64,000 bases of DNA, taken from contig OZ320321.1 of assembly GCA_976226885.1 (NCBI GenBank), positions 50,468,001-50,532,000 of the forward strand, in the 5' to 3' direction. The translations under genes were made by a program, and so were the position numbers. The notes beneath the pieces are model-generated. The model was not told the DNA's origin, did no database searches, and worked only from the letters and a program-made list of their open reading frames with translations. This stretch comes from Iphione sp. A-MEVVRFRX5. Its lineage: Eukaryota. How positions within the stretch are numbered: the first letter of the stretch is position 1; every line of letters begins with the position of its first letter. This document shows, one piece after another, positions 1 to 36,063 of the stretch.

Positions 1-1139
1 CTTTTCTCTTCGTACTGGACCCTCTCTGATTTGGCCCAAGCTATGTTCGACTGTTCACAACTGATTGAATTTGTATAACAAACATTCTTGCTATGAGAGA
101 AAAAAATGGAGAAGGACTCCATATTCTCAAGATTTAATACCCTATCTGCTATGTTCTATCTGCATATTTCGATGAAACATTGCGTGAAGGTGGTCTACTA
201 CATTTATTCGAATTTGATTTAATACAATCACGATTAAATCATGATTAAACGTGGAGCATACAAATATAGTAATACAAATATAGTAAGTGTACCCTAAATT
301 CCAGGGGGGCGCATACTGTGTACATGTATTTCTGTTTCATTTTCTTTCTTAAATCTGAATAGGATGCTTGAAATATTCTTTTCCTTTGTGGTTTGTCTCT
401 ATGAAGAATCTCAATCACAGGGAAGTTTGATTACACCTAGATAGATAAAAACCACAGATGTTGGTAGAGATAACGAATTATAGTTTTCTTTCTCTTCAGA
501 GGCTCCCGGGGAACCATAATAGTAACATCAAGGAGAGTAATGCTATAAAGCATTCTTCAAGGTTATATTTATATGGGTTATGTATATACGTACATTTGCC
601 TATTAGTCTTGCACAGAAATCAATATTCCTTCGATTACAAAAACGCGAACCTCAAGGAGCGCAAATTCATCTCAGAGTTGTTGCATAAAAAAGCAAAACT
701 CTCAAAAATATTACCTGACATTTGCAGTGACCCCCTGAGGCCAGTCATGTAACCCTATCGCATATAGTTAGAGTGCAGCTCAGTCGAGGCAGAAGGTCAA
801 CAGCTTAAGGTTACGTTCTCTCACTCAGTTGGCCAAGCAGACACGATTCAAACCAACGTCATTTGCTGGCTTACGGCGCTGTTGGTCATAAAGCATGGCC
901 CTACAGTAGCAATCTCATACGTTACCGAAGCAAGGAGGTCAGCATTGCTGGATCCCGCCTCTTTTCTTAATAGCGCTTCACATAAACATAGGTGGTACTA
1001 CACAGATACGGCTATGACCTTATCATGATAGGATTGATCGTCAAACGAGCAGATCGCATTAAACGTGGTATACATGTATACAATGATGCCCCCACCCGTC
1101 TATTCTTCTCTCTATTCTGATCCCTTTTCACAAACCATG

Positions 1140-28206: not shown

Positions 28207-28230
28207 TATAATATATATATATATATATAT
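28207..28230. repeat. (AT)n microsatellite at the element's 3' junction; a short (AT)n continues at 32543-32550
   Basis: Seen directly. Confidence 0.9.
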
Positions 28231-28284
28231 TGAAGGAGGACTCTGAACACACACAAATTGGGGTTTCCAATCACAATTTGAGGC
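28231..28284 (-). repeat. Split direct repeat B2 (54 bp, 3' terminus of the element)
   Basis: Exact copy of B1, abutting the host (AT)n tract. Confidence 0.97.
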
Positions 28285-28302: not shown

Positions 28303-28450
28303 AAAGTTTTCAAGCTGAGTGTCGGTTGATACACAATATGTTCCATTCCAAGCTGCACGTCACTCTGACATGCAATGTTGGCTAGGTGACCAAGATGCAG
28401 TTGATGACGTCTCCATATCAATATCCCAATAAACTCCTTATTAGGCATAT
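28303..28450 (-). repeat. Split direct repeat A2 (148 bp)
   Basis: Copy of A1 at an offset of 4096 bp, lying between B1 and B2. Confidence 0.97.
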
Positions 28451-28504
28451 TGAAGGAGGACTCTGAACACACACAAATTGGGGTTTCCAATCACAATTTG
28501 AGGC
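28451..28504 (-). repeat. Split direct repeat B1 (54 bp)
   Basis: TGAAGGAGGACTCTGAACACACACAAATTGGGGTTTCCAATCACAATTTGAGGC, identical to 28231-28284. Confidence 0.97.
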
Positions 28505-29582
28505 CAACCCCCAAAGAGGAAGAAACAACCAAGTCATCTTTATACAGTTGTATACTATTAGGGCGAACATATCTATAAACTGCATCACTTTTCCAGTTAC
28601 CTTTGGCTTTGATAGAATAGAGTGGTATACCAAGACTCGCCATGTGTGAGGCCCCACCGCGACGTAGAGAATGAGAGGTAATCCTCCCTTTGATCCCAGC
28701 TAACTCACAAACATATTTCAAAGAAGACTGGAATCTACCATATTCAAAAAACTTAAGTTCATCATTGATGCAATGGCTCAGAATAGGAACCTTCCTGGAA
28801 ACTTTAACCATTGAAAAAACTGATTTTAACCAATGAACCAAACAAAACCTCCAATCATCACATTTAGTGACTACAACTTCATGTGGATTAACACCAAACT
28901 GGTCAGTCTTCGATTTGACCAACCTCACTACTACACCATTACCACGAAAAATTACATCCTGTCTCCTAACACCATCCGAACCGGTGAATTGTCTCTTCCT
29001 TAAGAGGCACCTGAATCCTAGGAGAATCGCACACCAGAAAAGATAGTCATAAAGTTCTTTAAACTTCAAAACTCTAAAAATAGACTTTAAATCATCAAAA
29101 GTCAAACCCTTAGAGACCATGGTAGGACCTTCATAACCTCTTTTCAAGCCTGCTATCATCCATTTAATATTGTAATCCTGAATCACTGGACAACTCAAAC
29201 CCCTTTTCTTGTGCTCATAAATCACACCACACAAATAGTTCATGACAGATGAAGGACACATAACAAAAGAAAGGTAAGCACAGTACCGCCTAAACTGAGT
29301 CTGATCACATGGGTATGCATGCAAACCAAACCTTGAACAGAAACTTAAATAAACTTCCTCCTGTCTGTCCCTTGTCTTCAAGGTATTCTTGGAAAAAGCT
29401 GAAGACTTAAGCACCACCATCCTTTCGTCCAGCCTCCTCAACTTCCCTGAAATCAACCAAAAATTCTTTACAACAAGCTTCATCTGCCCAAGAAGACCAT
29501 CTGACATCTTCAACATGTACATCTGTAGACAACCGCGACAAGCCATCTGCCACCACATTATCCTTTGTGTTGATGTATTCAC
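28491..29582 (-). CDS. Tyrosine recombinase (ORF3) of the Ngaro element; probable start at ATG 29420 (MVVLKSSAFS...)
   Basis: Catalytic set LLRK (R), KSKTDQFG (K), HSLRRGGA (HxxR) and GNWKSDAVYRY (W...Y). It overlaps the 3' end of ORF2 by 176 nt in the +1 frame, and its stop lies inside repeat B1. Confidence 0.96.
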   Translation of the reverse strand: MNTSTQRIMWWQMACRGCLQMYMLKMSDGLLGQMKLVVKNFWLISGKLRRLDERMVVLKSSAFSKNTLKTRDRQEEVYLSFCSRFGLHAYPCDQTQFRRYCAYLSFVMCPSSVMNYLCGVIYEHKKRGLSCPVIQDYNIKWMIAGLKRGYEGPTMVSKGLTFDDLKSIFRVLKFKELYDYLFWCAILLGFRCLLRKRQFTGSDGVRRQDVIFRGNGVVVRLVKSKTDQFGVNPHEVVVTKCDDWRFCLVHWLKSVFSMVKVSRKVPILSHCINDELKFFEYGRFQSSLKYVCELAGIKGRITSHSLRRGGASHMASLGIPLYSIKAKGNWKSDAVYRYVRPNSIQLYKDDLVVSSSLGVGLKL

Positions 29583-31377
29583 AGCTCAAATGGATACCAT
29601 AGACCATACAAGTCCAGAAAATTTCCCTCAGCCATGCCATACAAATTTTATTCACACTGCATCCTGATCTAAGCATGTACATGACCTGAGTGTTATCCAC
29701 CCTGAACAATACGTTACTCTGTCTCCATGATTTACACCACCTTTTCAAAGACAGAACTACTGGCCACAACTCCAAAACGTTGATATTCTTGCTTCCCAAA
29801 TCCATCACTGGCACATTCTCATAATGACCACATCCTATACTAATAGGCTCTTTATCCCAGAAACCCAAAAACCAGTCTGTACCACAAGATCCAGCATAGC
29901 CAGAAAAAGATGAGTCAGTGAAACAAACAAAGTCAGGAACTCCTGATTTAATAATTCTTCCAGAACCATTAAAAGTCCTAGCGAAGGCTAACCACCACTT
30001 GAGATCATCCATCACCAATGCACTGACTTGACATCTCTTGTTGTTCCTTGGAAGTGACTCCACAAAATCATACAGATTCCTCGAAAAAGTCCTGCCACCC
30101 CCTATAATAGTAGAGCAGTGGGCTAAATAGCCAGTTAACTTTTCTCCTTCTTTTCTACCTAACTTACCATCTTTGATAGTAACCTTCAACAGCTCAGACA
30201 TTTTATCCAACTTCCCTTCAGGCAGTCTCAAACACATATCCACAGAATCTATTTCAATGCCTAAATACACACAAATCTGACTGGGATCAGTAACTTTCTT
30301 CCAAGAGACCTCAAAGCCCAAACCAGAAATTATATCAGTCAACACAGATCTATTCTGCATGCAAGACATATAATCCTTCCCCACCACTAAGAAGTCATCT
30401 AGATAATTAATTATGCCTGGACCACAAATCGACCTGAATTCATCAAAAATGAAGTTAGACAACTGAGTGAAAATATATGGAGCACATTTCAAACCAAAAG
30501 TAAGAGTGTTACTCACAAAAAATTCTCTATTGCCATCCATGACCCAAGAAAAACCCTGGAATTTTCTACACCTCGGATCCACTGAAACTGAACGGTAGGC
30601 ATTGCTGATGTCCACTACCGCCATGTAATCTCCAGGACACAGAAAGTCTGAGACATCACTAACTGATTTATATGAGAACTCATCAAACAAACCCCCCATA
30701 AAGTTATTAATGGAAGCATTTAAGGGTCTAGAGCAATCCGTTATGGGGCGAAGAGAACCATCTGCTTTAGGTACCCCTCCCATGGCATGAACACATTGAG
30801 GAGTCTCTACCACTTTACTCACAAAGCCTAAATTCATCTCATCTAATATTTTTCTTGTCATCTCTTCACAGAAACTGCCTGTCTCAATGGATTTATAATT
30901 CCGACAAAAGTAGCTACCATCGAAATCATCATTAACTATTTTAAATCCATTACAAATGCCAGACCAAATATAACTTCTGTACTCAACTTCATTATTACCA
31001 AAAGCACATCCACTAAAAAATCTGCAAGGCAATAATTTAGAATTCACACCATCCAAAACGTGAACACAAGAGCAACAGTTGTTTAGGCATTCATCATAAA
31101 TACGTACAGCCTTCACATCGTTAAATACAATATATTTTGGCATAGACTTGACCTCAGCGGGGTCACAAAATTCATCATTCACACAAACCTCACACACATC
31201 AATAATAAACCACTTGATGTCATTCAAACCATGCAAGGTAGAAAATTCATTAAGTTTAGTATAACTTTCGCCATAGAGCTCCTTACAACTCAAACTCAAT
31301 TTTGCACACTTCTCATATAATGGAAAGCTATAAACCTGAAAACAGGATTTATCATCAACAGTTGACTCCATCTCCAC
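29407..31377 (-). CDS. pol: Reverse transcriptase-RNase H (ORF2/pol) of the Ngaro element, 656 aa
   Basis: RT motifs GVPKADGSLRPITDCS, VVDISNAY, LTFGLKCAPYIF, NYLDDF, YLGIEIDS. RNase H acidic residues in FTDSS, NINVLELWP, VDNTQV, DNVVADGLSR. No internal stops. No aspartic-protease D[ST]G motif seen. Confidence 0.97.
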   Translation of the reverse strand: MEMESTVDDKSCFQVYSFPLYEKCAKLSLSCKELYGESYTKLNEFSTLHGLNDIKWFIIDVCEVCVNDEFCDPAEVKSMPKYIVFNDVKAVRIYDECLNNCCSCVHVLDGVNSKLLPCRFFSGCAFGNNEVEYRSYIWSGICNGFKIVNDDFDGSYFCRNYKSIETGSFCEEMTRKILDEMNLGFVSKVVETPQCVHAMGGVPKADGSLRPITDCSRPLNASINNFMGGLFDEFSYKSVSDVSDFLCPGDYMAVVDISNAYRSVSVDPRCRKFQGFSWVMDGNREFFVSNTLTFGLKCAPYIFTQLSNFIFDEFRSICGPGIINYLDDFLVVGKDYMSCMQNRSVLTDIISGLGFEVSWKKVTDPSQICVYLGIEIDSVDMCLRLPEGKLDKMSELLKVTIKDGKLGRKEGEKLTGYLAHCSTIIGGGRTFSRNLYDFVESLPRNNKRCQVSALVMDDLKWWLAFARTFNGSGRIIKSGVPDFVCFTDSSFSGYAGSCGTDWFLGFWDKEPISIGCGHYENVPVMDLGSKNINVLELWPVVLSLKRWCKSWRQSNVLFRVDNTQVMYMLRSGCSVNKICMAWLREIFWTCMVYGIHLSCEYINTKDNVVADGLSRLSTDVHVEDVRWSSWADEACCKEFLVDFREVEEAGRKDGGA

Positions 31378-31383
31378 ATTTAG

Positions 31384-32340
31384 TCACTTTCTACTTGCTT
31401 TCACCTCTTTCGTTCTATCCAAATTATTCACATTGTTAGGACATTCATACGCCTTATGCTCTGAATTGCCACAAACAAGACAAGCATGTTTAAAATTGCA
31501 ATTATTATCTGCACATGTACCATTGTTGAAGCGATAACAAACTTTGTCAGTCTTCCTTGAATCACTTACACGCTTTGTTTTTGCTTTCTGGTTGCCAGGG
31601 CGATTGCTTGAAGCACCCACCATCATATCAAAAGAGAAATGACTCCTGATTAATTCATCATCTCCAAAAGTAAATGAACTAATACCTTTCTTCTCCGCTC
31701 TTTTCCTTACGTCCCTATCATACTCAATAAAGGAACCATCTTTATAAACATTCTGGACCCTTTTCTCGAGCATGAACGTCAGGTGACTAAGGTAACCGGA
31801 AATGTCACTTCCTTTTTTAAGGTGGCGCTGAGCCAACTTAATCGAGCCGAGTAAAAGTTCATCAAATGTCTTAATATCTTTCACTTTGGCCGCTGCAGAC
31901 ACATTGAAAGCTCTCTTCTTACCAGAAGATTTCTTTTTCCTCGATCTCTCCTCCTCCTCTCTCTCGGAATCGGTTGAAGTCGTTGAGGAATCATCACTCG
32001 AACTACCAGTTTCCGCTCCCATCTTAGAAACTGGCTCAGTCGTCTCCTTTGACAACGAAGCTTTACTCGCACCATTTGACGACAAAAACATGGAAAACAT
32101 ATTCTCCAGTCTACCCATTCGAGCTGAAATATCCTCGATATCACCATTTCTCGGCTGAGATTCATTCTCAAAGCCTGAAGACACATCATTTCCCTCAACA
32201 ACAGAGGAAACACCAGGAAATTCCAACGACGTAGTACCAATTTCCTCGACAAACTGACAATTTTTGCCCACCGGGGGGCTATGCCTGCGATGACACTTAG
32301 AACAATGCCGAGCCATGATATTCTTGTCAGAAAATACCAA
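31384..32340 (-). CDS. gag: Gag-like ORF1 of the Ngaro element (318 aa from TTG; first ATG at 32316, MARHCSKC...)
   Basis: N-terminal CSKCHRRHSPPVGKNC Cys/His knuckle, Ser/Glu/Lys-rich linker, C-terminal CYRFNNGTCADNNCNFKHACLVCGNSEHKAYEC (CCCH followed by CCHC-like finger). It is the first ORF after repeat A1. Confidence 0.9.
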   Translation of the reverse strand: MVFSDKNIMARHCSKCHRRHSPPVGKNCQFVEEIGTTSLEFPGVSSVVEGNDVSSGFENESQPRNGDIEDISARMGRLENMFSMFLSSNGASKASLSKETTEPVSKMGAETGSSSDDSSTTSTDSEREEEERSRKKKSSGKKRAFNVSAAAKVKDIKTFDELLLGSIKLAQRHLKKGSDISGYLSHLTFMLEKRVQNVYKDGSFIEYDRDVRKRAEKKGISSFTFGDDELIRSHFSFDMMVGASSNRPGNQKAKTKRVSDSRKTDKVCYRFNNGTCADNNCNFKHACLVCGNSEHKAYECPNNVNNLDRTKEVKASRK

Positions 32341-32398: not shown

Positions 32399-32546
32399 AA
32401 AGTTTTCAAGCTGAGTGTCGGTTGATACACAATATGTTCCATTCCAAGCTGCACGTCACTCTGACATGCTATGTTGGCTAGGTGACCAAGATGCAGTTGA
32501 TGACGTCTCCATATCAATATCCCAATAAACTCCTTATTAGGCATAT
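32399..32546 (-). repeat. Split direct repeat A1 (148 bp, 5' terminus of the element)
   Basis: Identical to 28303-28450 except one base (32470 T vs 28374 A). Confidence 0.97.
32453..32510 (-). promoter_or_regulatory. Two CRE/ATF-like TGACGT motifs in repeat A1 (candidate element promoter)
   Basis: CACGTCACT (TGACGT on the minus strand) and ATGACGTCTC within A1, also present in A2. Motif match only. Confidence 0.35.
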
Positions 32547-35582: not shown

Positions 35583-36063
35583 ACGTCCCGATTGCAGAAA
35601 CCATCAGTTCTCAAATTGTCCGCATTTCAGATGGGACCAGATTATAGATCTGTTTAAAAGTGACTGAGGCCTCCCTGGAGCCCCAAAGTCGCACTAAAAC
35701 ACATGGTCTGTGGGGTATACCAAGTGAAATGTGTGAAAATGACCCCTAAGGCCTCCCTGGAGCCCAAAGTTTGTGCTAAAACACGTTGTCTGTAGGGGTA
35801 TACCGAGGGAAATGTGTGAAAAAGACTCCTAATGCCCCCTGGATCCCCAAATTCATGCTAAAACAATTTGTCTGTAGGGGTATACTAAGGGAAATGTGTG
35901 AAACGGACTCCTGAGGACTCCCTGGAACCCTAATTTGCCTAACAACACTGTCCATAGGGGGATGCTTTCTCCAATGAGCTGCCCTGATTGGAGACGTCTC
36001 CTTATAATGGTTATATATGGCAAAAGAGTCGGTTCTTTGCTGAATCATCTGCAATTGGGACGT
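35583..36063. mobile_element. Putative MITE (16-bp imperfect TIRs) enclosing the 82-bp minisatellite
   Basis: ACGTCCCGATTGCAGA (35583-35598) and TCTGCAATTGGGACGT (36048-36063) are inverted copies with 1 mismatch. No clear TSD. Confidence 0.55.
35661..35962 (+). repeat. Minisatellite, about 82-bp unit, about 3.6 copies
   Basis: Unit starts CT(G/A)A(G/T)G.C.CCCTGG at 35664, 35746, 35829 and 35911. The units share TGTCTGT.GGGGTATAC and GAAATGTGTGAAA. Confidence 0.92.

Follow-up and report, generated by a model that had tools for sequence, protein, structure and literature searches.

The window analysed here is a stretch of 64,000 nt from the genome of Iphione sp. A-MEVVRFRX5 (assembly GCA_976226885.1, contig OZ320321.1, positions 50,468,001 to 50,532,000 of the forward strand). 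Its minus strand carries a complete and intact Ngaro-type tyrosine-recombinase (YR) retrotransposon, in which gag and pol lie in one phase and are separated by a single TGA that ribosomes are predicted to read through. The element was assigned to the Ngaro type from the layout of its repeats and open reading frames (ORFs); PAT-like and VIPER-like elements also have split repeats, and our reverse transcriptase (RT) tree contained no named references. From its 5′ end the element comprises the following features, where R stands for A or G, a slash marks the predicted splice point and clade A is the window element's own clade, as defined below.

32399..32546, minus strand: A1, the 5′ split direct repeat, 148 nt, 99% identical to A2
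31384..32316, minus strand: gag-like ORF, 310 codons plus TGA, from ATG 32316, with Cys/His motifs at each end
31917..31925, minus strand: candidate splice donor CTG/GTAAGA, phase 1, at gag codon 132; same position in 69 of 80 clade A elements
31381..31389, minus strand: candidate readthrough site AAG TGA CTA; in clade A, TGA at 118/119 and CTR at 116/119 loci
29407..31383, minus strand: pol frame (variable linker, RT, RNase H), 658 codons in the phase of gag, without a conserved ATG
29447..29463, minus strand: candidate splice acceptor, a pyrimidine-rich tract plus CAG, next exon from 29446; phase shared by 54 of 55 scored elements
28491..29585, minus strand: tyrosine recombinase frame, 364 codons stop to stop, with a 176 nt overlap with the pol end
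28447..28504, minus strand: B1 repeat, 58 nt, 100% identical to B2, with ATAT in common with A2
28303..28450, minus strand: A2 repeat, partner of A1
28227..28284, minus strand: B2 repeat, partner of B1, followed by an (AT)n run

The order of parts is A1 - gag - RT/RNase H - YR - B1 A2 B2, where the A and B pairs are split direct repeats; both pairs were detected in 73 of 80 full-length loci among the relatives described below. The near-identity of the A and B pairs in the window points to a recent insertion. In Pfam searches, pol matched RVT_1 (E 7.5e-18), and the third frame, which contains the motif HSLRRG, matched Phage_integrase (E 6.3e-6, 26.5 bits, slightly under the cut-off of 27.1). 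RNase H was assigned from motifs; the window protein had no Pfam match for it and two relatives had weak matches only. The pol frame ends about 40 residues past the RNase H end motif. In the gag-like protein, zf-CCHC_3 was matched at only E 0.069, and no methyltransferase, protease or DDE integrase was matched in the element's proteins to E 0.1.

On the minus strand the gag-pol junction reads AGA AAG TGA CTA AAT GTG GAG ATG GAG, with the TGA at 31386-31384. A preliminary description, made from the sequence of the window, had placed gag and pol in one phase on either side of a TGA-CTA and had proposed readthrough of this stop. Our translation agrees with it: the gag frame, which runs stop to stop over 31384-32340, continues in phase into that of pol (31383-29407), and reading from ATG 32316 with the TGA as X gives a fusion of 969 residues with one X only, at position 311. 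Of the downstream ATGs, that at 31379 is out of frame, with an ORF of 27 codons, and that at 31371 is the first in frame. All the coordinates and counts of that description were confirmed.

Relatives were sought in the same genome, which amounts to 1.18 billion bases. A DNA search over the junction, in which 40 of 135 candidates were scored, returned 30 loci; the nearest other copy among the 40 scored was 76% identical to the window element, and a stop followed by CTA or CTG was found in all 30. To avoid query bias, a second search used the RT core alone, and 150 of its 13053 candidates were scored; 30 loci and 100 more were added, and 20 were left out (14 already in the set, 2 partial and the 4 weakest). 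Removal of 8 duplicates and of 7 loci without a gag end from the resulting 160 left 145 for analysis. Six of these, with a frameshift inside the gag end, were set aside, and in five of the six an AAR TGA CTR is still present near the gag end. The remaining loci form clade A (119 loci, including the window) and its sister clade B (20 loci), both well supported in a quick tree that was used for clade grouping only. The genome holds about a hundred diverged, low-copy families, many of them with intact frames and identical repeats.

In clade A, the gag stop is TGA at 118 of the 119 loci and TAA at one, and the next codon is CTA at 105, CTG at 11, CCA at two and CAA at one, which gives CTR at 116. 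The 89 clade A loci that came from the RT search only have TGA in all 89 cases and CTR in 86. Information content is 1.6-2 bits at positions +1 to +6 and falls to 0.05-0.65 bit from +7 (106 dereplicated loci). The +7 base (G 44, T 44, A 11 and C 7 of 106) is not conserved, and the signal is therefore UGA-CUR rather than the CUAG or CUAA contexts that the preliminary description had brought forward. CTA makes up 339 of the 3796 Leu codons in pol (9%). Across gag and the conserved part of pol, synonymous identity in 66 aligned loci lies near the expectation from codon usage, mostly 0.9-1.4 fold, so that recency does not explain the conservation of TGA-CTR, and one of the five outlying columns in this test is the CTA codon after the stop. 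The other two stops of the element served as controls. The pol frames end in TGA (21), TAG (21) or TAA (13) and the YR frames in TAA (49), TGA (20) or TAG (2), with TGA-CTR at 0 of 55 and 0 of 71, respectively. Since pol and YR frames end in TGA, the host treats this codon as a stop.

Downstream of the stop, the pol linker is highly variable in sequence. At 99 of 106 loci the stop and the pol anchor are nevertheless in phase, over 20 different distances, and 93 of these 99 linkers are free of stops. Codons +2 to +20 hold 5 in-frame stops over the 106 loci, against 68 and 327 in the other two frames. The first in-frame ATG may lie anywhere from codon 3 to codon 176 and is past codon 20 in 54 of the 73 intact loci; given this scatter, ATG 31371 is a feature of the window copy. 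The preliminary description had listed it as a possible pol start, which is unlikely because the ATG is not conserved in the relatives. Frame continuity, TGA and CTR were all kept across the genomic relatives, and none of the sequence-level observations that the preliminary description had named as refuting was made. Judged from these sequence patterns, translation appears to run through the gag stop in clade A, and the readthrough interpretation of the preliminary description is supported.

Clade B keeps the stop, TGA in 19 of 20 loci, with CTG as the next codon in only two of 20. A helix scan of this clade (L132, L136, L140-L142, L144-L147, L149-L154, L156-L160) revealed two strongly covarying helices downstream of the stop, +24..29/+109..114 and +94..99/+145..150, which cross each other; both were scored as pairings, and their simultaneous formation is not implied. 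In an 18-sequence alignment, 91.7% of the cells are paired and 9 of 12 pairs have changed on both sides. The 35 double changes compare with 12 in shuffles, with 0 of 500 shuffles as high and slid controls at 47% or less; the helices were selected on these same sequences, which are related, and the shuffle control ignores relatedness. RNAalifold independently finds the first helix and extends it to a long-loop stem from about +9, and neither the structure nor the window element itself has a meaningful Rfam match. Clade B likely swapped the CUR signal for a downstream pseudoknot-like RNA structure. Further conserved blocks in clade B (CCAT, TGG and ATGCWAAT) reach about +205, and structure and blocks together lie within +9 to +212; a third helix, CCATG/CATGG, varies too little to be proven. 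A ribosome hop between Asp codons found before the stop and eight codons later was considered for this clade and dropped, since the downstream bases adjoin a covarying helix.

Beyond this genome, an alignment-based metagenome scan gave 70 loci, many of them decayed. A gag-end motif was present in 27 of the 70, and 22 of these 27 end in TGA. In nine, the TGA is followed by an open in-phase run to RT, in the contexts CCT (2), ACG (3), CTA, CTG, CCA and CGG, and those that were placed in a quick tree sit on several deep branches; the tree is midpoint-rooted and does not fix the ancestral state. In six others (L164, L169, L171, L173, L179 and L183), pol overlaps the gag end in a different frame, as in published elements. 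The putative readthrough arrangement is thus widespread, not universal. These six loci are candidate frameshifting lineages, and the gag of L164 still ends in TGA-CTG. A single-protein metagenome scan and a viral-contig scan confirmed no relative, and no longer protein containing the window gag was found at E 1e-5, which is weak evidence. One protein of the P0002 cluster, P0125, is a gag-pol fusion of 1100 aa with Trp at the junction (1 of 15 listed members), known as a protein only; its Trp could reflect a TGA-to-TGG copy or an effect of the code used in gene calling.

The YR frame has no conserved ATG: in 34 frames the first Met lies anywhere between codons 1 and 99. At 54 of the 55 loci in which a conserved YR motif was found (of 80 full-length loci), a pyrimidine tract with YAG occurs in one phase, 41-47 nt upstream of the motif. 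This candidate acceptor persists even where the pol frame ends before reaching it (L062, L080, L097 and L100), and five distant metagenome loci share its phase. A phase-matching donor, G/GTAAR, is found at one gag position in 69 of 80 clade A loci, and Gly codons at this site are GGT in 69 of 70 cases, against 47% overall; in clade B the best local donor is in phase 1 at 13 of 14 loci. In the window, the predicted phase-1 intron (31922-29447, 2476 nt, minus strand) leads from gag codon 132 to YR, and the spliced product would be an open frame of 449 aa, Gag(1-131)-YR. From the conserved donor and acceptor we predict a spliced Gag-YR protein. The loci L009, L025, L061, L067, L073, L075, L083 and L086 are without the usual gag donor, and those checked keep the YR acceptor. 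Two other donors were considered and rejected: AAA GGT at gag codon 211, where 7 of 66 loci have GGA and clade B varies, and a GT at the stop itself, which the 41 of 119 loci with AAA ahead of the TGA do not have.

Programmed UGA readthrough between gag and pol is, in our judgement and on the strength of these sequence comparisons, very probably the best explanation. Most ribosomes would terminate at the UGA and release Gag (310 aa), and a near-cognate tRNA would decode it in a few percent of passes, yielding the 969-aa Gag-RT-RNase H, which would be packaged via its Gag part. The predicted splice would join gag codon 132 to the beginning of YR, so that the stop and pol are lost with the intron and the 449-aa Gag-YR results, and one promoter would thus supply all three proteins. 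We also somewhat favour a broader scheme, a retrovirus-like programme of three products from one RNA, with Gag made by termination, Gag-Pol by UGA readthrough and Gag-recombinase by splicing; readthrough would be old, and lineages would have swapped its trigger among a bare UGA-CUR, a long-range pseudoknot (in the sister clade) and frame overlap.

Several observations weigh against this interpretation. The preliminary description had proposed to look for a stimulator 3′ of the stop, and no conserved structure was seen in the window's clade: folding gave no stimulator in clade A (fold z -0.77) and the covariation scan no covarying helix in 66 sequences, so that the predicted readthrough rate rests on a weak signal. 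A duplex test gave a mean z of -0.26 at 106 clade A loci against -2.29 in 18 clade B loci, and the fold z of the whole region in clade A is slightly low (-0.87 against -0.17 in the control, 40 loci); a structure with variable spacing could escape these tests. The motif is not universal, as 18 of 20 clade B loci are without CTR and TGA-ACG is the context at three of the nine metagenome loci with an in-phase run. To this are added the way in which the clade B helices were selected, the 11 of 80 clade A loci without a donor at the usual position, and the case of Tca2, in which the gag-UGA-pol junction by itself did not support readthrough in yeast and proved to contain a minor promoter (PMC2194720). 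Finally, an in-frame ATG at codon 41 is conserved in clade B (at least 14 of 18 loci), lies within the structured region and could be used as a start; the 40 codons before it hold 0 in-frame stops at 18 of 18 loci, against 38 and 107 in the other frames, and readthrough is therefore favoured in clade B.

In one rival reading, pol has its own start at an ATG downstream of the gag stop, reached by reinitiation or through an internal promoter or entry site. The in-frame ATG 12 nt past the stop in the window, the ATG at codon 41 inside conserved structure in clade B and the minor promoter in the Tca2 junction (PMC2194720) would suit such a start. However, only 10 of the 73 intact clade A loci have an ATG among their first 10 codons, the codons before any ATG stay in phase and stop-free, and the fixed TGA and CTR would be left unexplained; we regard this reading as improbable. 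CTA is not known to act as a start codon. Slightly less credible still is alternative splicing in which the gag donor is joined to an acceptor within the pol linker and the stop is skipped. Gag does hold a strong phase-1 donor, and a phase-1 AG follows a conserved Phe-Pro motif in 38 of 105 loci, against 66 of 679 for Pro codons of pol, but the window has no phase-1 acceptor-like site in the 560 nt past the stop and acceptor-like sites are as frequent in the RT core (47 of 64 loci, 80 sites) as in the linker (46 of 64, 78 sites). The lack of a GT donor at the stop in the 41 loci with AAA before TGA also speaks against it, and TGA-CTR would again go unexplained.

Reading of the UGA as selenocysteine, or its A-to-I editing to a Trp codon, has a similarly small probability in our view. 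The near-constancy of TGA in clade A (118/119) and clade B (19/20) would fit, as would the Trp at the matching place in P0125, a protein from another genome. Against this, Rfam gave no match to a selenocysteine insertion sequence (SECIS) in the window element or 14 full copies, and a crude SECIS pattern was matched by 1 of 47 and by 0 of 47 shuffles. The linker around the site is basic and of low complexity, clade A has no conserved duplex over the stop, and the fixed CUR agrees with ordinary readthrough. The possibility that a fused gag-pol ORF suffered a private nonsense mutation, which the preliminary description had envisaged, is refuted by the absence of any sense codon at the site in 139 loci; a host that reads TGA as sense is equally refuted, as none of 55 pol frames of at least 620 codons has an internal TGA, and this codon is the terminator of 21 pol and 20 YR frames. 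No rival accounts for the fixed TGA-CTR together with the in-phase, stop-free linker.

Our comparison with known systems draws on sections of the cited papers. Ngaro-like YR elements of the order DIRS share the arrangement of the window element, with gag, RT/RNase H and YR between A1 and the B1 A2 B2 split repeats and with YR overlapping the pol end (PMC6681497, PMC9210276, PMC3783388). Published Ngaro-like elements have separate, often overlapping ORFs, and all frames overlap in Xenopus families, whereas gag-TGA-pol is in frame here; the window element also differs from described Ngaro-like elements in having no extra hydrolase ORF. The examined sections of the DIRS and Ngaro literature mention neither readthrough or an in-frame stop nor the mode of ORF2 translation. 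We found no report of readthrough in YR elements in the literature searched, the coverage of which was incomplete, and an earlier remark is possible.

Readthrough between gag and pol is already known in long terminal repeat (LTR) elements, and the arrangement described here would be its YR-element variant. Tj1, Tcry1 and Tosmo1-3, Ty3/gypsy elements of fission yeasts, have gag and pol in frame with a TGA followed by CTA or CTG, and the in-frame stop of Tj1 is reported to be essential for transposition (10.1101/2022.12.06.519325). The window element resembles Tj1 and Tosmo in its TGA-CTR between in-frame gag and pol. However, these are fungal LTR elements with a protease and a DDE integrase, while the YR element has no protease, so that its Gag-Pol fusion would stay uncut, and the codon before the stop is Lys here and Glu in the Tj1/Tosmo group. 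The alphavirus precedent invoked in the preliminary description fits as to the motif, but the fission-yeast elements are closer.

The Type II readthrough motif, UGA-CUA or UGA-CGG, is used by alphaviruses (nsP3/4), tobra-, furo- and coltiviruses and by mammalian UGA-CUAG genes (PMC3159437, PMC4132726). Sindbis UGA-CUA with only 3 nt of 3′ context gave 2.0% readthrough in cells (PMC3159437), and UGA-CUA alone gave 1.5% in mammalian reporters (PMC4132726). Clade A shares the motif but has neither a conserved stem nor a fixed G at +7; the extended 3′ stem-loop, which is frequent and not obligatory in Type II sites, was found in clade B and not in clade A. The long-loop stem of clade B resembles that of alphaviruses, and differs from it in the crossing second helix and in mostly lacking the motif. 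Tca2 of Candida (PMC2194720) and the gammaretroviruses also have an in-frame stop between gag and pol, although murine leukemia virus uses UAG-G with a compact pseudoknot, unlike the UGA-CUR of the window.

How DIRS-order elements express three ORFs without promoters or start codons of their own is not addressed in the examined parts of these papers. Readthrough combined with the splice would be a concrete answer for one large lineage, and would extend gag-pol readthrough past retroviruses and LTR elements. A fixed six-base signal in about a hundred diverged families, set beside a sister clade with an RNA structure in its place, amounts to a natural experiment on UGA leakiness, and the covarying RNA structure of clade B is a candidate new readthrough stimulator. 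In such elements, pol and YR called from the first ATG would be mis-annotated.

The ends of the element are ATAT, the B1/A2 junction shares ATAT, and most copies lie inside (AT)n runs (window positions 32546 and 28227; ends of L061-L160). This shared ATAT and the (AT)n setting are likely the recombination core and the target preference, respectively. Elsewhere in the window, at 35664-35936, there is a tandem array of units of about 82 nt that are 71-83% alike and not related to the element.
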